Shown here piece by piece: positions 9,837-38,648 of a stretch of DNA of 48,767 bases. The notes under the pieces were generated by a model, which was given only the letters and a program-made list of their open reading frames with translations, searched no databases and was not told the origin of the DNA. How positions within the stretch are numbered: position 1 is the first letter of the stretch; each line of letters opens with the position of its first letter. Location: positions 1 to 48,767 of the IMG/VR virus record IMGVR_UViG_3300044259_000044, one strand, 5' to 3'. The DNA is from a virus (lineage: Duplodnaviria; Caudoviricetes). Made by a program: the position numbers and the translations under genes.

Positions 9837-9863
9837 ATAAAGCCCGGCGTTGCCGGGCTTTAT
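9837..9863. terminator. Intrinsic (bidirectional-type) terminator
   Basis: ATAAAGCCCGGC-GTT-GCCGGGCTTTAT. Confidence 0.85.
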
Positions 9864-9924: not shown

Positions 9925-10495
9925 ATGTTGACAATCCCGAACAACAAACTGCGCGCTGCACTGACTCACGCCGCCGTCAAGGATATCCGCTATTACCTGC
10001 GCGGCGTCCACCTGGAGGCAACGCAAGCCGGCGATCTGCATATCATCAGCACGGACGGCACGCGGATGTTCGTCGGCGTGCTGCCCGGTGCGGCAACGGA
10101 CGCCCCGACGTTCTCGCGCCTGACCATTCCCCGTGGAAGTGCTAAAAGGCGCACCCAAGACAGGATCGGTCGTGTTGGCACCGAACGGCGACCGCTGGCA
10201 GCTTGGCGCTACCCTGTTCGACCCTTGCGAGGGCGTGTTCCCGGACTGGCGGCGCGTCGTGCCCCCGCAGACCGAGCAGGTGGCCGGACGCAACTTTGAC
10301 TACGATTTGCTGGCCGATGCGCAGACCGCGCTGCGCTTGTGGTGCGGACAAAGCAAAGCGAACGTGGCGCGTTACGATTACGAGTTTGCGTCGGTGGTAG
10401 TCGGTGAAGATTCTACCGCGTTCAGTATCGTCATGCCGTTGCGCAATGACAAATTTGAGTGGGCGCTGCCGTTCAAGCCTGGCGTCGCACGCTAA
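9925..10495 (+). pseudogene. DNA polymerase III beta-clamp-like gene split by a +1 frameshift at 10129-10132
   Basis: KDIRYYLRGV and STDG match the DnaN middle domain; the GVFPDWRRVVP...IVMPLR half lies in the +1 frame. Confidence 0.75.
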
Positions 10496-10532
10496 ACGCA
10501 AAGCCCGGCGATGCCGGGCTTTGCGTTTAGCG
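10490..10532. terminator. Terminator within a 20-bp perfect inverted repeat
   Basis: CGCTAAACGCAAAGCCCGGC-GAT-GCCGGGCTTTGCGTTTAGCG. Confidence 0.85.
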
Positions 10533-11096: not shown

Positions 11097-11121
11097 AAAG
11101 GCCCGGCAATGCCGGGCCTTT
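11097..11121. terminator. Intrinsic terminator after tail tube gene
   Basis: AAAGGCCCGGC-AAT-GCCGGGCCTTT. Confidence 0.85.
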
Positions 11122-31765: not shown

Positions 31766-31923
31766 ATGATGATCTCGGTGAGCTTCTAGCGTTTGTTCTG
31801 TTAGTTGCAGGCGGTATATTCTTTGCCGTCGTAGGCAGCTTTACTTACGGGTTACTTGGGTCAGTGCCTGGATGTGTTCTAACCGCTATGGGCTTTATAT
31901 TGCTTCGATTGGGATTGAAATAA
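31762..31923 (+). CDS. 53-aa two-TM membrane protein
   Basis: ATGA and TAATG coupling on both sides; AT-rich; hydrophobic. Confidence 0.65.
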   Translation: MNDDLGELLAFVLLVAGGIFFAVVGSFTYGLLGSVPGCVLTAMGFILLRLGLK

Positions 31924-32666
31924 TGACCAACACGCCCTACAGCACGCCCTTCGAGGCGTTCTACGACCCTGACCGCGCGCAGGAATTCATCATCCGCGCG
32001 ATCCTGCGCGGCGACCTGCACACGGCCGAACTGGTCGAAGTGTTGGCCGTCCAGCCCGTGAGCGACCGCGTCGGGTTTGTGACCGTGCAGCCGCTGGTGC
32101 TGCAGTCCGACACGAACAACATCGTGATTGCGCAAACGCCCGCCTACAACGTTCCCTACCTGCGCCTGCAGGGCGGCGTGTCGGCGGTGATCCTGGACCC
32201 GGTTGTCGGAGACCGTGGCGTCGCGCTGTACGCGCAGAACGACATCACGAACGTCAAGACCACGCTGACCGAGGGCCAAGCCGCAACGGACCGCGTGTTT
32301 TCGACCGCCGACGGCCTGTACCTGGGCGGCTTCCTGAACGCCGCGCCGACGCAGTGGGTCAAGTTCTTGGGCGCTGGTGCGGGTATCGATATCCACTCGC
32401 CCGGGTCGATCGCACTGACGGCCGGGACGACGCTGACGCTGACCGCCGGCACGACCATGCAGTTCACCGCGCCGGGCGGCCTGACGATCAATGCTAACGT
32501 GACGCACAACGGCACTTGGAATGGCACAGCCACCGGCGCGGGCAGCGTGAACTTCGCGGCGCCAGTCAATGCGCCGGACGTCGTGACCAGCAAGGGCAGC
32601 GTGAACGCGCACGACCACGGCAACGTGCAGAACGGACCGAACCGTACCAACCCGATGAATACTTGA
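31923..32666 (+). CDS. Baseplate central spike (gpV/gp138-like)
   Basis: VTVQPL, ILDPVVGD.G, beta-helix repeats, HxH (AHDH) tip. Confidence 0.85.
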   Translation: MTNTPYSTPFEAFYDPDRAQEFIIRAILRGDLHTAELVEVLAVQPVSDRVGFVTVQPLVLQSDTNNIVIAQTPAYNVPYLRLQGGVSAVILDPVVGDRGVALYAQNDITNVKTTLTEGQAATDRVFSTADGLYLGGFLNAAPTQWVKFLGAGAGIDIHSPGSIALTAGTTLTLTAGTTMQFTAPGGLTINANVTHNGTWNGTATGAGSVNFAAPVNAPDVVTSKGSVNAHDHGNVQNGPNRTNPMNT

Positions 32667-32691
32667 CATCGGGCGAATGATTGATTAAGCT
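32663..32691 (+). promoter_or_regulatory. Sigma70 promoter for ncRNA region
   Basis: TTGACA-17-TAAGCT. Confidence 0.8.
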
Positions 32692-32710
32692 TTGGTTATT
32701 AGCTGACTAA

Positions 32711-33056
32711 CCTGCGCCGGGTAAGCGCGCAGGACCAACACAGAAACAGCTAAATCGCGGGGGTGATGTCCCGTAGAGTACGGCAAGGAATACATCGCCT
32801 TGTGTCGGCGCCTCGAAAGGGTTCAGGCTGTTTCTGTGTTGGTGTGTCGAGTTGCCTAAAGGGTAGTGGCCCGTTCTGCTGTGAACGTGTTTGCTGGTTT
32901 GATTCCAGCCTCGGCCAACAACAACCAATGCGGAAACAAACCGGAAGGCGCGTGAGCCCGGGGACGCCCGATGCGACGTATCGTCAAACCGTGGAAACTA
33001 GCATCGCCATGCGGGCCATAAACGCTGACAGGGCGGAAAGACGCTCACCTATTCCA
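32711..33056 (+). ncRNA. Array of structured RNAs
   Basis: 17-bp perfect stem 32734-32750/32827-32843, nested stems, AC-rich linkers, no convincing ORF. Confidence 0.6.
32845..32917 (+). tRNA. Degenerate tRNA-like cloverleaf; anticodon not assignable
   Basis: GTCGAG/CTCGGC acceptor, GCC/GGC D-arm, CGTTC/GAACG stem with a 6-nt loop, GCTGG-TTTGATT-CCAGC T-arm. Confidence 0.55.
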
Positions 33057-33064
33057 AACCTACC

Positions 33065-33403
33065 ATGCCCACCTACGCCCTGCGCTGCCGCAATTCGGCA
33101 TGCCGCCACCGCCGCACGTCCAAGACGCACCCCGACGCTTACCGGCGCGTGCCGGCCTGCGAGGCGTGCGGATCCGTGAAGGGTTGGCGCATTGAGTCCT
33201 GCCGTTCCTGGCACAAACGCCAGGCATGCACGTGCGGCCAAGTCGTCGGCCGTGACGGCCCTATCCCGCACAATCGCTGGCACCCGCTATGCGACCATCA
33301 TCCTGAAGGCAAACGCAACCAGCTGCTGCGCCAAGGCGTCGCCGAGGCCGACTTGCCCATCGAACTCATGGGCAAGCCGTGCCGGGGCGACTGTCCGTTC
33401 TGA
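33065..33403 (+). CDS. Cys/His-rich Zn-binding protein
   Basis: CxxxxC, CxxC, CxC, HPLCxHH motifs; no obvious SD. Confidence 0.65.
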   Translation: MPTYALRCRNSACRHRRTSKTHPDAYRRVPACEACGSVKGWRIESCRSWHKRQACTCGQVVGRDGPIPHNRWHPLCDHHPEGKRNQLLRQGVAEADLPIELMGKPCRGDCPF

Positions 33404-34540
33404 TTACTGCCAGGGCCGGCGCGCAACTGCCAGCGAATCCTTGAAGACCCAGTAGCTAAACCCGTTGGCCGCGTTGTTGGATGCCTGATTGCACGCGATG
33501 TAAAAATACGTGCCGGTCGTCGCATCCAGCAAATACACGTCGCCGTTGCCGTTGGTTTGCCCTGCGCCCAGCTGGACGACCTGGCGATAGACGTTCGCAT
33601 AGGCGTTCGTCTTCAGGATCTGCGGCGCGGTCTTGTCAAACTGCGTGCCGCCTCGATCACTGAACGCTACGATGAAGCGCGCCGGGTCGGCGCACTGCAC
33701 GATGCGAGGCTGCACTTTCGTGCCGTTGCTCAAACCCAAGCCCGTGCTGACGCCGGATGTCCACGTCGCGCCGTTGTTGGCGCTGGTGATCTGCTGCAGG
33801 TACGTGGCGGTCCCCGCGCGATACACGCACACCAGCTTGCCCGTGCCGTCCACCGTGGCCACGCAAGCTTCGGACATGGTTTGCGTCGAGACGCGGCTGT
33901 AGTTGCTGAACGTGCCATCAAAGGCAGGATTCACTTGGATGCGATAGAGCCCGGTCGGCGACTCGCACGAGAAGTAAATCCACGTGTTACCGGACGTGTC
34001 GGTGATGACGTTGGCGCAGTAAAGCAGGTTGTCAGTCACGGGCGTGCCGCCGCTGGTCACCGCAATCGGCGCACCGAAAGATCGACCGACCAGGCCGTCC
34101 GTGCTGATCTGCACCATCACCCGGATCTGGTTCGTATCGGTGCGCAGGCGCTCGGTGGTAAACATCCAGATCGAACCATTGATGACGTACTCGCAGTGTT
34201 CAAAAACTGCCCATGTGGCCGGCTGATACACGTACTGCCGGTCGCTGGCGCTGCCGTTGAACGATAAAATGTCGATCAGAAACGAACGCACGACCACGTT
34301 GCCATAGCCCGTGGTTTGCTGGTAGCTGTCCGCGCCGGTCCGGTTGTACACGTTCAGCGTGTTGGAGTCCACGCGGGTCGTGTGATAGCCGATCTCATAT
34401 TCCGGCGTCGGGCGTTGTTGCTGCACGCCAACGCCCTTCGTGTTGGTAATTTGCGCGGGGCTTGGGTACGCGTAAGGCGTGTACGTCTGCCCCGCCAGGA
34501 CTTGCGCGGCGGCCGCGTGCAGCTGAGACAGGTTTGCCAT
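33404..34540 (-). CDS. Beta-propeller/BNR (sialidase-like) protein, putative virion appendage
   Basis: Asp-box-like STDG..G and SANNGATWT; beta-rich composition. Confidence 0.6.
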   Translation of the reverse strand: MANLSQLHAAAAQVLAGQTYTPYAYPSPAQITNTKGVGVQQQRPTPEYEIGYHTTRVDSNTLNVYNRTGADSYQQTTGYGNVVVRSFLIDILSFNGSASDRQYVYQPATWAVFEHCEYVINGSIWMFTTERLRTDTNQIRVMVQISTDGLVGRSFGAPIAVTSGGTPVTDNLLYCANVITDTSGNTWIYFSCESPTGLYRIQVNPAFDGTFSNYSRVSTQTMSEACVATVDGTGKLVCVYRAGTATYLQQITSANNGATWTSGVSTGLGLSNGTKVQPRIVQCADPARFIVAFSDRGGTQFDKTAPQILKTNAYANVYRQVVQLGAGQTNGNGDVYLLDATTGTYFYIACNQASNNAANGFSYWVFKDSLAVARRPWQ

Positions 34541-34543
34541 GAA

Positions 34544-35851
34544 TTACGCTCCGTACAGATAGACGAACCGCGCGTAGTGCAGAATGATCCAGTCGTTGGC
34601 CACCGTGCCGCAGTTCAGGTTGACCGTAGCGCTGATGTTGGCCGTCGTGTCCTGGGTCAGGATGGTGGGCGCAGACGCCGACACGGCGTTCGTCTTGGTA
34701 CGGAACATCTGGCGGGTTTGCTGGCCGAGGTTCTGCAGCACGACATCAATTTCGCCCAGATTGGCGTTCGTGGTGTTGAGCGTGCCGTAGACCGTGTTGG
34801 ACGAGCCAAACCCGATCAACGCGGTCTTGGTGTTCGTGTTGGAACTGGTTTGCAGTTGCGAGCTCAATTGCACCGCCCCGTTGTTGCCCAACGCGCCGCC
34901 CGGGATGGTGAACGTCGGGCCCTGAATGGGCATCGTGTCTTGGGTCGTGTTCGTGCCTGCAGCTACGGCAAACGCGGTCGGGCTGGCCGGAATGGTCGGC
35001 GTGCCGCCGGTAGCGACGTTGTAGACGTTGTTGTAGAGGGTCACCGACGTGGTGGACGAGAAGACGCCGTAATACCAACCTGCCGGATTGCTGGCCGTGA
35101 TGCTGTTGGCCGGCATGTAGACGTAGGCGTAAGGCCATGCGGTCGTCTGGGTCGGCACAGTCACCACACCATTGGCAGCAGCCGTCCAGCTACCCGTGGC
35201 GAACACGATAAACGGAATGCCGCTCACGCCCAGCAGGGTCTGGCCGTTCGACACGGGGTTTTGCGCAGCGTAGGAATCGGCCGCCACGGCGGCGATGGTA
35301 GTGAGCGAACCCGGGCCGTTGGTCAGCCCGATATTTCCCGCAGTGACGCCGCCGGCAGGCGACACGGTAATTTTGCCCGTGCCGAGTTGCACGACCGTGC
35401 AGGAGAACGTGGCGCCCAGTCCGGTCGGATAAGTCAGGGTAATCGGCGAACTGCCCGAATAGGCCAGCGTAGCGTTGTTGTCGGTGGTGGCCAGGTTGCG
35501 CGAAGTGGTCAGCGTGCCGCGCGCCAGCAACTGCGAAAGCGCGTTCATGCCGGTGCCGGTCGTGCCGAGCCGGCAAACCGAGCCGCTCGCCCACGCCGCA
35601 GCTGTGCCTTCCACCGCGCGCTGGCTGATGGTGATCGTGTCGCCTGACACGGCGGTCACTTTGATGACTTCCCAACTGGTTTCCGATGTCGGGCCGCCAG
35701 GCTGAGTCAGGGTCAGCAGCACGTAATCGCCGTTGGCCAGTGTCGGCAGCAGCGCGCCGGTGCCGGTAGCCAGGGTGGCCGACGCCGCCACGTTGGTGAT
35801 GGAAGCCGCCAGCGTGGTCGAGAAGTTGCTGACATACAATTGTTGATTCAT
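34544..35851 (-). CDS. Fibre-like structural protein
   Basis: NFSTTLAASIT...EVIKVTAVSGDT.TI.R..EGT.A N-terminal module; Thr/Gly/Ala-rich. Confidence 0.65.
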   Translation of the reverse strand: MNQQLYVSNFSTTLAASITNVAASATLATGTGALLPTLANGDYVLLTLTQPGGPTSETSWEVIKVTAVSGDTITISQRAVEGTAAAWASGSVCRLGTTGTGMNALSQLLARGTLTTSRNLATTDNNATLAYSGSSPITLTYPTGLGATFSCTVVQLGTGKITVSPAGGVTAGNIGLTNGPGSLTTIAAVAADSYAAQNPVSNGQTLLGVSGIPFIVFATGSWTAAANGVVTVPTQTTAWPYAYVYMPANSITASNPAGWYYGVFSSTTSVTLYNNVYNVATGGTPTIPASPTAFAVAAGTNTTQDTMPIQGPTFTIPGGALGNNGAVQLSSQLQTSSNTNTKTALIGFGSSNTVYGTLNTTNANLGEIDVVLQNLGQQTRQMFRTKTNAVSASAPTILTQDTTANISATVNLNCGTVANDWIILHYARFVYLYGA

Positions 35852-35860
35852 GGCAGATCC

Positions 35861-36166
35861 TTACAAGGAAAATGCGTTGAGCGGGGCGTAGTTGATAGCC
35901 TTGGACTGCGCGACGTTCACCGATGCCGGAACGTTGACCGAGTTGCCGCTGGTGATTGCAACCGTTGCTACGACGGTCAACGTGGTGCCCGCGTCGGCCG
36001 ACTGGATGACGTAGGTGGAGGCCGTGGCGCCGGAAATGTTGGCGCCGTTGCGCTTCCACTGGTAGCCAGTCGCAGTGCCGCCCGCGACGGTCGCGGTAAG
36101 CGTGCTGCCGACGGCGTTACTGCCGGAAATACTGACGCGCGGGCCGCCGCGTTGCGGGAAACTCAC
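35861..36166 (-). CDS. Ig-like domain protein
   Basis: ISG...VGSTLT..YQWKRNG..ISGATASTYV...D.G motif. Confidence 0.75.
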   Translation of the reverse strand: MSFPQRGGPRVSISGSNAVGSTLTATVAGGTATGYQWKRNGANISGATASTYVIQSADAGTTLTVVATVAITSGNSVNVPASVNVAQSKAINYAPLNAFSL

Positions 36167-36450
36167 GACTGCACCCGATAGGTGTCGCCAGCTACGCCGG
36201 TGAACCGCACATGCGTGATCGGCGACAAGGCGGCCACGACTAGCTGCGCAGCGACAGACACGTCATAAGTCGGTGTAAAATAGTTGACGCCAAGGCCATC
36301 GGCGCAAAACTCGATTGCGCGCAAGCTGTTCGTACTGGTCAGTTGCGCGGTCAGCGGCGCTTGCCGTAACGACGCAGGAACTGGAATGACAACTTGGGTT
36401 TGCCCGACGGGAATGGCCCCCGCAGCGTAGCCCAGATCGACAAGTGCCAT
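36163..36450 (-). CDS. Small beta-rich structural-type protein
   Basis: GGGAG SD; coupled to the Ig gene. Confidence 0.65.
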   Translation of the reverse strand: MALVDLGYAAGAIPVGQTQVVIPVPASLRQAPLTAQLTSTNSLRAIEFCADGLGVNYFTPTYDVSVAAQLVVAALSPITHVRFTGVAGDTYRVQS

Positions 36451-36528
36451 AGGGAACTCCCGTTGGTAGGTGATACCGCAATGATAGCGTGAGCCTATCC
36501 AAACCGCTACTACAATAGAAAGACAACC

Positions 36529-36666
36529 ATGTATAAACTGCTCGCAGTCGCCCTTCTCGGCATGTTCTTCTTCGGTGGCGACCCCAGCATTGCCGAATTG
36601 GCCCGCAAGTGGGCCGAAGTGCAATACGAACTGGCCGACATGCGCCGGACCGTCTGCCCCGATTGA
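36529..36666 (+). CDS. 45-aa membrane-anchored peptide
   Basis: MYKLLAVALLGMFFFGG hydrophobic N-terminus; TACAAT just upstream. Confidence 0.5.
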   Translation: MYKLLAVALLGMFFFGGDPSIAELARKWAEVQYELADMRRTVCPD

Positions 36667-36705
36667 ACTTGCCAATTGCGGCAAAGATTCTGATAAACTG
36701 CCGCA

Positions 36706-37962
36706 ATGACTACGAACGTCCCACTGCCGACTTTCACGCCCGCCGGGCTCGTTACCAACAGCGAGCAAAGCATTCTTGCGGGCGTGCTGGCCGATTACGT
36801 GGCCGCGTTCGCGCTGACCGGCAAGACGCTCTCCACCGAATTGACCACGCCGCAAGGGCAACTTGCATCCTCGCAGGCGTACATGGTGGCCGATTTTCAG
36901 GCGCTCCTAGCGCAGCTGATCGCCAACGTGGACCCGCTGACCAGTTCGGGCGCGTATCAGGACGCATTGCTGCGCATCTACCTGCTGACCCGCAAACCCG
37001 CGACCTACGCAACCGTGCCGGCCACGCTAGGCGGCGTGCCGGGCTCCGTCATCACTGCGCCCGCGCAGGTCAAATCCAGCGATGGCAGTATCTGGGAAAC
37101 CCGCGAAGACGTGACGCTCGCACCTGACGGTACGGCAACCGCGACGTTCTACGCGCAGGTAGCCGGTTCGGGTCCAACAGCTGGCATCAACGACCTGAAA
37201 ATCTACCAGCGCCAGAACGGCTGGCAGACCGTGTCCAACGCAACGGCCAGTGTGCCGGGCGTGGATGTCGAAAGTCGCCAAGCCGCCGAGGTGCGGCGCC
37301 AGGAAAGCGTGCAGATCGGCGGCAACGGCACGGCACAGGCCGTGCGCGCGGCGATTGCCGACATCACCGACGTGACTGACGTGTTCGTCTACAACAACGG
37401 CACCGACGCCGCAATCACCTACGGCGCGACGAACTACCCCATCCCGGCGCACAGCGTCGCTATTTGTGTCACCGGTGGCACGGATCTTGCAGTAGCGCAG
37501 GCCATCCAATCCAAACTGGATGCCGGATGCGGCATGTCGTCCTTCGGCACCACGTCGGTGACGCTGCAAGACACCGTCAACTATTCCGCGCCGTACCCGT
37601 CGTATGTGTACCGCTTCGTGCGCCCGACGGCCAAACAGTGCTACATCACGGTCAACGTTGCCGACGTGTCCACGCTGCCGGCCGACTATGTCAGTCAGGT
37701 ACAAAAGGCCGTCGCAGCGGCGTTCCTGAACGGCTATTCGACGGCCGACGGCACAATCAACGTGAGCCGCGCGCGCATCGGTGCGCAGATCATCGCGGCG
37801 TCTTACCTGCCGATCGTCAGCACGTTGGACAACATCACGCCCATTTCGATTTTCATCGCCTTCACGGCGTCGCCTACCAGCGGCGCAGCCGTCACGTTGG
37901 GCATCGATCAGCAGCCGGTTTGCCCTGTCGCCAACATCTTGGTTAATCGCGTGACGCCATGA
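36706..37962 (+). CDS. Baseplate J-like wedge protein
   Basis: TPQGQL, G.DVES...RR, IPAHS...V.GG motifs. Confidence 0.85.
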   Translation: MTTNVPLPTFTPAGLVTNSEQSILAGVLADYVAAFALTGKTLSTELTTPQGQLASSQAYMVADFQALLAQLIANVDPLTSSGAYQDALLRIYLLTRKPATYATVPATLGGVPGSVITAPAQVKSSDGSIWETREDVTLAPDGTATATFYAQVAGSGPTAGINDLKIYQRQNGWQTVSNATASVPGVDVESRQAAEVRRQESVQIGGNGTAQAVRAAIADITDVTDVFVYNNGTDAAITYGATNYPIPAHSVAICVTGGTDLAVAQAIQSKLDAGCGMSSFGTTSVTLQDTVNYSAPYPSYVYRFVRPTAKQCYITVNVADVSTLPADYVSQVQKAVAAAFLNGYSTADGTINVSRARIGAQIIAASYLPIVSTLDNITPISIFIAFTASPTSGAAVTLGIDQQPVCPVANILVNRVTP

Positions 37963-38648
37963 GTGACTATCTCGGCGCAACGGTCCAAAAGCAATATTCG
38001 AATTCGCCGACCTTGTTGGCGTTGCTGGACGACTTCGACCAATGGGTTGACATGGCGAAGTTCTCGGACCAGTTCCTGGCCAACGTGTGGGACATTTCGA
38101 CCGCGCAGGGCTTCGGGCTGGACATCTGGGGGCGCATCCTGGGGCGATCGCGCTATCTCCAAATTGCGCAAACGCCTGGCGACAATTTCGGGTTTGACGC
38201 AAACCCGACGACCGGGCAGACGAATTGGAAACCGTGGAATCAAGCGCCGTTTTACAACGGGGACGCATCGGGCAACGTGACCTATGCGTTGCAGGACGAC
38301 TACTACCGTCGCCTGCTGCTGGTCAAAGCAGCGGCTAATATCGCCGCTTGCAACGCGCCTGCGCTGAACGCGCTCCTGCGCGGCATGTTCGGCGATCGTG
38401 GGCAGTGCTTCGTCGGCTATGACCTGGCGTTCCCGATGCATATCGGCTATTTCTTCCGGTTCATGCCGTCATCCGTTGAAAAGTCCATCATCGAATCCGG
38501 GCTGTTCCCGGTGCCGGCGGGTATGACCGTGACGTTCGTCTACAACTTCCTGAGTTATTCGCCGATGGGCTTCGCGCAGTCCAACAGCGGATCGGTTCCA
38601 AATTACGTTACCGGTTGGAATCAAGGCCCCTTTATCCCTGCGAGCTGA
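37959..38648 (+). CDS. Baseplate wedge protein (DUF2612-like)
   Basis: QYSNSP, TAQGFGLDIWGRILG, DDYYR motifs. Confidence 0.85.
   Translation: MSDYLGATVQKQYSNSPTLLALLDDFDQWVDMAKFSDQFLANVWDISTAQGFGLDIWGRILGRSRYLQIAQTPGDNFGFDANPTTGQTNWKPWNQAPFYNGDASGNVTYALQDDYYRRLLLVKAAANIAACNAPALNALLRGMFGDRGQCFVGYDLAFPMHIGYFFRFMPSSVEKSIIESGLFPVPAGMTVTFVYNFLSYSPMGFAQSNSGSVPNYVTGWNQGPFIPAS

Follow-up and report, generated by a model that had tools for sequence, protein, structure and literature searches.

A short intergenic stretch of a Bcep781-like phage carries an RNA cassette built on a conserved scaffold, an H-type pseudoknot abutting a long stem, into which different inserts are swapped. The scaffold recurs in other phages, its paired positions covary, one pseudoknot pair changes in concert across copies, and in several relatives the insert is derived from a tRNA. 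This is almost certainly a selected RNA structure, and the cassette is very probably made as RNA; cutting by RNase III is probable, and a role of the payloads as decoys against host defense is put forward tentatively. Taken as a whole, we lean, by a modest measure, toward a cassette that is transcribed and cut by RNase III into decoy or regulatory small RNAs.

The window analyzed here is the entire 48,767-base virus record. Its relevant features are as follows:

31923..32666, plus strand: baseplate spike gene, Bcep781 gp36-like (53% identity); its stop codon overlaps the -35 hexamer of the promoter-like site
32663..32691, plus strand: sigma-70-like promoter site, TTGACA-17-TAAGCT, a sequence pattern
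32705..32733, plus strand: conserved leader hairpin forming an H-type pseudoknot (stem 32711-32717/32727-32733; loop pairing with 32705-32708; model R2)
32734..32843, plus strand: stem 1, perfect 17 bp (arms 32734-32750/32827-32843), with a conserved base of about 7 bp and a variable upper part
32751..32826, plus strand: insert 1, a variable branched payload, replaced in relatives
32837..32843, plus strand: shared strand, able to close stem 1 or, by pairing with 32914-32920, unit 2
32844..32920, plus strand: unit 2, a degenerate tRNA (D-arm 32854-32870; arm with a 6-nt anticodon loop 32872-32887; T-arm 32893-32909)
32924..33050, plus strand: domain 3, a third variable module of tentative structure
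33065..33403, plus strand: 112-aa Cys/His-rich protein, N-terminally zinc-ribbon-like, phrog_17384 (function not assigned)
33404..34540, minus strand: convergent gene outside the cassette, given for context; its stop abuts that of the zinc-ribbon ORF

Genomic setting and promoter-like site

The spike gene shares its 53% identity with baseplate spike gp36 of Burkholderia phages Bcep781/Bcep43 and with a protein of Ralstonia phage RS-CA1, which identifies the window phage as a Bcep781-like myophage, presumably with a host among the Burkholderiales. The cassette occupies the space between the spike stop codon and the 112-aa ORF (33065-33403), and every sequence element named in the initial annotation is present at its given position. 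The initial annotation placed it inside a tail operon; instead, it ends a plus-strand run, and the genes from 33404 on lie on the minus strand. A minus-strand block at 33404-38441, convergent with the spike operon, appears to hold the baseplate-wedge and tail-fiber genes, whose identities are inferred from size and weak PHROG matches; in Bcep781 and the Ralstonia relatives, unlike in the window, such genes follow the spike on the same strand.

A promoter had been proposed ahead of the cassette. The pattern TTGACA-17-TAAGCT is indeed present, but a consensus scanner did not call it and its -10 hexamer matches at only 3 of 6 positions. If active, the cassette's own promoter would drive a transcript from a predicted start near 32698, and the predicted 370-nt transcript folds at z = -3.1. 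No change within 32663-32691 is listed in the relatives X3, X4, X5 and X8, and a promoter-like site stands at the matching place in L105, L004 and Bcep781. In Bcep781 and L004, the site behind the spike region precedes small ORFs. Its presence after the spike in relatives with other downstream content indicates a variable insertion site with its own promoter. In L131, a long inverted repeat of the promoter-like site lies just 3' of it, between promoter and leader.

The leader pseudoknot

The leader spans 29 nt, and its hairpin (32711-32733) folds at z = -2.2 relative to shuffles. The hairpin CCTGCGC..GCGCAGG described in the initial annotation is present, but its reading as a minihelix with a free ACCA end was rejected, as ACCA occupies 32734-32737 and forms the first four bases of the first strand of stem 1. 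That annotation did not register the H-type pseudoknot, the strand shared between two stems or the exchange of inserts. The pseudoknot, which abuts stem 1, has 7 bp in its second stem and 2-3 nt in its first loop; in the window copy, the short stem has only 2-3 pairs.

Across copies the hairpin loop is nearly invariant, although its second G is sometimes C. Among the 22 parsed copies, the upstream partner is C wherever this loop base is G (18 copies) and G wherever it is C (four copies), with no discordant case (Fisher p = 1.4e-4 for 22 distinct copies, kinship ignored), and the four copies carrying the swapped G-C pair have four different stems. Excluded from this count were L113, L130 and one L127 copy, on account of stem mismatch, and L122, L131 and L135 as duplicates. 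Assignment to the H-type class thus includes a compensatory loop-to-flank change, on one covarying pair only.

The loop holds invariant unpaired bases and the distance to stem 1 is fixed at 0-1 nt, features that would also be expected if the pseudoknot and stem base were a small self-cleaving ribozyme freeing the payloads without host enzymes, as would the recurrence of the pseudoknot module before several units of one array. Such a ribozyme is nevertheless improbable: no Rfam model of a known self-cleaving ribozyme matches the window or the related loci, the core measures only about 30 nt, and the conserved stem base and shared strand would be left unexplained. In a by-eye comparison, the topologies of the HDV-like, hammerhead, twister and hairpin ribozymes were also unmatched.

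Stem 1 and its insert

The 17-bp stem (32734-32750/32827-32843) is perfect, as had been noted, and the 110-nt domain that it closes reaches z = -5.1, with none of 200 shuffles as good. This value is due to the stem, since the inner 76 nt alone score z = +0.36, no better than shuffles; the inner stems drawn earlier do appear in the centroid of the domain. In 24 aligned units, sequence conservation in stem 1 extends over the first seven pairs, of which two are invariant, and the remainder varies freely. Insert 1 itself has no relative among the collected loci. The earlier suggestion that the RNAs are cut apart at unpaired AC-rich linkers is not supported, as those stretches are themselves paired strands within the scaffold.

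Recurrence and covariation of the module

A hairpin pattern scan recovered L103 from a 72-kb phage, where the hairpin precedes a perfect stem other than that of the window. Looser leader scans returned 28 and 21 overlapping loci in IMG/VR, of which seven of the 28 were judged chance or coding and excluded, and three in GTDB genomes (Bordetella, Achromobacter). The module occurs in lytic phages and prophages, many of them unrelated, and in two cultured phages, including Alcaligenes phage vB_Af_QDWS595 (L104). Model R2, a 48-position model of 22 copies, matched 8 of 151 genomes when searched across the family to which a Bordetella genome belongs; L170/L176, L171, L172 and L173 are additional copies that have differing stems and the full context, unlike L174 and L175. 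A class-wide search matched 4 of 151 genomes, and besides the center genome the three others were weak, none with stem context. Directly behind the hairpin, a stem of at least 12 Watson-Crick pairs is found in 21 of 24 loci, a count made without shuffle control; L122, L123 and L127 have fewer.

Covariation among homologs had been named as a check on the structure, and it bears out the scaffold. In 24 aligned copies, 92.5% of cells are paired and 18 of 27 pairs change on both sides, counts that overstate independent events because the copies include near-relatives; none of 500 shuffles scored as high, and structures slid along the alignment pair in 34-45%. One-sided, G-U-tolerant changes indicate that the structure is kept at the RNA level. 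The proposal of a structured non-coding RNA array under selection therefore stands, on covariation and conservation in relatives, and the array belongs to no Rfam family. In Rfam release 15, the window gave no match, apart from one chance match (E = 2) in 32500-33500, and none was obtained at the module in sets of 20 and 18 related loci. Among titles and the opening parts of abstracts, a corpus that mostly excludes subscription papers, no description of the module was found; the 10,006 candidate viral RNAs announced in PMC10690425 may hold it.

In 7 of the 24 copies (L104, L120, L121, L129, L131, L138 and L171), insert 1 is tRNA-derived: the first base of a 7-bp acceptor always falls at one alignment column, 9 nt past the hairpin, and the anticodon arm gives way to a long stretch. 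The Rfam tRNA matches in L120 and L121 begin at this acceptor column. The module recurs within arrays L108 and L127, and arrays also hold real tRNAs, a permuted tmRNA (L104) and an abiF RNA (L113).

Several observations concern the surroundings of these loci. The abiF RNA (L113:1754-1790, minus strand; 61.9 bits against a cut-off of 37) is solitary and lies at the end of the module-bearing array. The permuted tmRNA and several tRNAs of Alcaligenes phage vB_Af_QDWS595 (L104:197-544) are absent from the feature table that the record gives for this stretch. In the prophage-like loci L112, L115, L129 and L133, the Burkholderiales-2 RNA (RF02917) is located some 1 kb upstream of the module.

Exchange of inserts between close relatives

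Of nine DNA runs with close relatives, none of them recorded as RNA, six with small shares were compared (X3, X4, X5, X7, X8 and X9; five studies on record), with contigs mostly below a depth of 5; X7 and X8 each show a record that agrees with the other's in length and depth, and the two could represent a single data set. Between them, the leader is near-constant, and the sequence downstream is exchanged in blocks. The leader is 98% identical, compared with 85-88% for the flanking genes. On one 7.9-kb contig of X5, 3 differences occur in the 182 nt of 32650-32831, as against 89 in 593 nt of the spike and 42 in 350 nt of the zinc-ribbon ORF. After the leader, 254 other bases stand in X5 for 218 window bases, and the 3' arm of stem 1 is apparently reduced to about 10 bp. 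Agreement with the window ends at 32740, 32742 and 32747, respectively, in records of X9, X8 (and X7) and X3, and in another X3 record 78 other bases replace 32845-32913 in unit 2.

That swap points fall at conserved flanks, and that the site behind the spike gene holds different inserts in related phages, could mean that the conserved parts are DNA signals, namely recombination or protein-binding sites for cassette exchange, with incidental RNA folds. We give this little credence, since the G-U-tolerant changes, the concerted pseudoknot pair and the inserts derived from tRNAs all point to RNA, and ordinary homologous recombination in conserved flanks accounts for the swaps. Rapid exchange of payloads under a fixed RNA scaffold fits a host-phage conflict.

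Unit 2 and the shared strand

A tRNA-like cloverleaf had been drawn at 32845-32917. Its T-arm is good (32893-32909; 5 bp, 7-nt loop, beside the acceptor strand), but the anticodon loop has 6 nt, a U-C mismatch stands at 1:72, ACA follows the discriminator, ARAGORN reports nothing, and in the minimum free energy fold the D-arm region is paired otherwise. The anticodon loop and the 1:72 mismatch show that unit 2 is not a decoding tRNA. Its fold scores z = -1.1 alone and -2.1 with the closing stem. A T-arm and a 7-bp acceptor are present in unit 2 of L115. At L047:1490-2410, tRNA-like units and long stems extend over about 900 nt behind a promoter-like site; a relative of the zinc-ribbon ORF lies 600 nt further downstream, and one T-arm of this stretch is identical to that of the window.

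When unit 2 is folded alone, the partner of the shared strand is 32914-32920, and this partnership (32837-32843/32914-32920) matches the swap boundary 32844|32914 of X3. A scripted stem search in the window placed the best partner of the shared strand in domain 3 rather than at 32914-32920, and in the whole-transcript fold unit 2 pairs with domain 3 and the cloverleaf is absent. A repeat of the 5' arm of stem 1 occurs further downstream and offers the 3' end of that stem an alternative partner; in L105, this second stem comprises 15 Watson-Crick pairs and is followed, as in the window, by the zinc-ribbon ORF.

The two stems overlap by 5-10 nt and are mutually exclusive, an arrangement that would suit a cis-acting switch in which the shared strand alternates between stem 1 and stem 2, thereby controlling downstream termination or translation, here of the zinc-ribbon ORF, with parallels in attenuators and the P4/P1 immunity leaders. 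The start of the ORF about 10 nt past stem 2 in L105 and the lack of a Shine-Dalgarno sequence before it point the same way. We nonetheless regard a switch as unlikely: terminators are not above chance (1 found against 1.2 expected), the next gene varies among copies, units repeat in arrays and have tRNAs behind them, and inserts change freely.

Domain 3 and the overlapping 138-aa ORF

The stems of the multibranch domain described in the initial annotation can be drawn, but the region folds no better than shuffles (z = +0.03 and +0.52). X3 and X4 retain 32914-33048 with 4 differences each, and the three listed changes in domain 3 keep or add pairs in the stems of that annotation; in X5, the domain is replaced. 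BLAST against 401 Burkholderiaceae-family genomes gave short matches in 12 genomes, of which the six loci inspected were chance-like. A pattern scan returned 37 loci, none with the fuller pattern or the leader, and plasmids gave no match.

Translation of the region as a 138-aa ORF (32763-33179) was weighed here. The two measured swaps lengthen or shorten the DNA by multiples of three (36 and 9 nt), and two of the three listed X3/X4 changes are synonymous in its frame. A coding role is still very improbable, as the ORF has no PHROG or Pfam match, X3, X8 and X9 diverge 5' of its start codon, X5 replaces most of it, and it overlaps the zinc-ribbon ORF out of frame.

The zinc-ribbon ORF and motif X

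The 112-aa protein is basic and Cys/His-rich, and its ORF lacks a Shine-Dalgarno sequence, as reported earlier, with no purine-rich stretch before the ATG. It has 10 close relatives and 77 cluster representatives. The FmdB-type zinc ribbon PF09723 scores 17.2 bits, below the Pfam cut-off of 34.4; a structural model (pLDDT 68.6, pTM 0.39) gave no fold match at E <= 0.001, the best Atlas score was 0.83, at lead level only, and seven longer relatives show no informative domain.

In the window, L105 and L118, the cassette has the ORF behind it, as it does in L131 one gene further on, and motif X, an unrelated structured RNA, lies upstream of relatives of the ORF in 9 of 44 loci. Together with the basic, Cys/His-rich protein, these placements could indicate that the array is one large RNA bound by the zinc-ribbon protein in a ribonucleoprotein. 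This seems very unlikely to us, because the R2 module was found in none of the 33 ORF-bearing loci searched (of 44), motif X is missing from 35 of the 44, most arrays have no adjacent ORF, and inserts are swapped while the protein gene stays 88% identical (DNA). The same counts give no support to an obligate link between RNA and protein. The ORF looks like a co-transcribed passenger, with a possible loose tendency to sit behind RNA arrays.

Kinship of the window RNA with motif X was considered and rejected: model R1 gave 45 matches at E <= 10, none within 32660-33070. Motif X is an RNA of about 165 nt with three pseudoknots and ribozyme-like complexity, without an Rfam match in the loci tested, and 23 of its 45 pairs change on both sides in 9 copies. 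A first pattern scan returned 41 loci, comprising 5 already known, 1 new and 35 chance hits. It is found in L019:198-366, L027:1890-2057, L029, L031, L034 and L036, and further in L042, L045, L049, L084 and L190:1501-1672, the matches in L027 and L190 being held-out ones. Upstream of it there is often a gene with an acidic tail, a hairpin resembling a terminator and a long stem whose insert is variable or a tRNA, and the zinc-ribbon ORF often comes after it. In L020:2710-2825 and L023:2140-2290, a terminator-like hairpin occurs together with a long stem that encloses a branched insert, with neither motif X nor the pseudoknot leader present.

Proposed processing

When RNase III cuts long RNA stems, it leaves 2-nt overhangs, and it recognizes short sequence boxes; a stem of 17 bp is rather short for the enzyme, and the apparent shortening of the 3' arm in X5 also counts against such cutting. 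In the processing that we favor, RNase III would cut the two strands of stem 1 in a staggered manner about 8 bp above its base, at the boundary of sequence conservation, a placement derived from that boundary and from general rules of the enzyme. Cutting would release insert 1, and the freed shared strand (32837-32843) would re-pair with 32914-32920, closing the tRNA-like unit; the pseudoknot stacked on stem 1 may serve as a folding or end-protection element. With such a cut, tRNA-derived inserts would keep one extra 5' base and two bases beyond the discriminator, and in L115 the downstream piece would begin at the first base of the unit 2 acceptor.

Comparison with known systems

The module is real, under selection and uncatalogued, and by analogy it probably operates in the manner of phage small-RNA precursors that RNase III processes. 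One such case, the dicBF transcript of the Qin prophage, is described as yielding the DicF sRNA via RNase III and RNase E, with RNase III making the 5' end of a 190-nt DicF RNA from the prophage operon (bioRxiv 2023.04.14.536235). The window cassette resembles dicBF as a predicted phage-borne polycistronic RNA with long stems yielding small RNAs, and it has a long selected RNA stem in a predicted non-coding phage transcript; the long stem after dicF opens with a short word like that of unit 2 of L133 and L153. However, the window cassette has no DicF family match, R2 is unmatched in the Qin and lambda stretches (L158 and L159), and the window is a lytic phage with a pseudoknot module, a shared strand and swapped inserts. 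Since R2 is unmatched in lambda and Qin, kinship with DicF processing is by analogy only. The Pas sRNAs and STnc100 of lambdoid prophages are, as outlined in bioRxiv 10.64898/2026.05.13.724894, likewise intergenic and variably present.

Phage tRNA islands are promoter-driven clusters with tRNA-derived RNAs, as the cassette is predicted to be, whereas unit 2 of the window is unable to decode and the scaffold, not the tRNA, is conserved. The C4 RNA of P1/P7 and the CI RNA of P4 are tRNA-shaped and cut from a phage precursor. Unit 2 shares with them a tRNA-like shape within a presumed phage precursor, but neither the window nor the related loci have a C4-type Rfam match, and window-type inserts are replaced wholesale. 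Type III antitoxins of the ToxI family are, like the module's leader, H-type pseudoknots of about 30-35 nt, and an abiF RNA lies in one related array (L113); in contrast to them, the module has no tandem repeats and no Rfam match at its pseudoknot, and is always joined to a long stem. Two preprints link the abiF RNA to an abortive-infection system (bioRxiv 2025.04.15.648962) and describe T5 tRNA-Tyr as countering retrons (bioRxiv 2023.03.15.532788).

Implications

A broader reading, which we consider rather doubtful, is that Proteobacteria phages use a standard RNA expression chassis, made up of pseudoknot, processing stem and shared strand, into which broken tRNAs, antitoxin-like RNAs and other mimics are swapped as payloads. 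If true, the chassis would be the RNA counterpart of anti-defense gene hot spots, each insert a decoy for one host defense nuclease or sensor. Were the payloads decoys, every insert would be a candidate RNA inhibitor of host defense, and the natural swaps between near-identical phages would provide ready test pairs. If the module is merely a processing scaffold, it would still be an uncatalogued RNA family and would explain many tRNA-like fragments in phage genomes. In either case, the 48-position model offers a searchable handle on small-RNA arrays of lytic and temperate phages that annotation leaves blank, and the cultured Alcaligenes phage vB_Af_QDWS595 makes transcription and cutting directly testable.

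Elsewhere in the window, perfect inverted repeats are located at 1-49 (18 bp), 9837-9863 (12 bp), 10490-10532 (20 bp) and 11097-11121 (12 bp), the first of which lies at the extreme end of the record.
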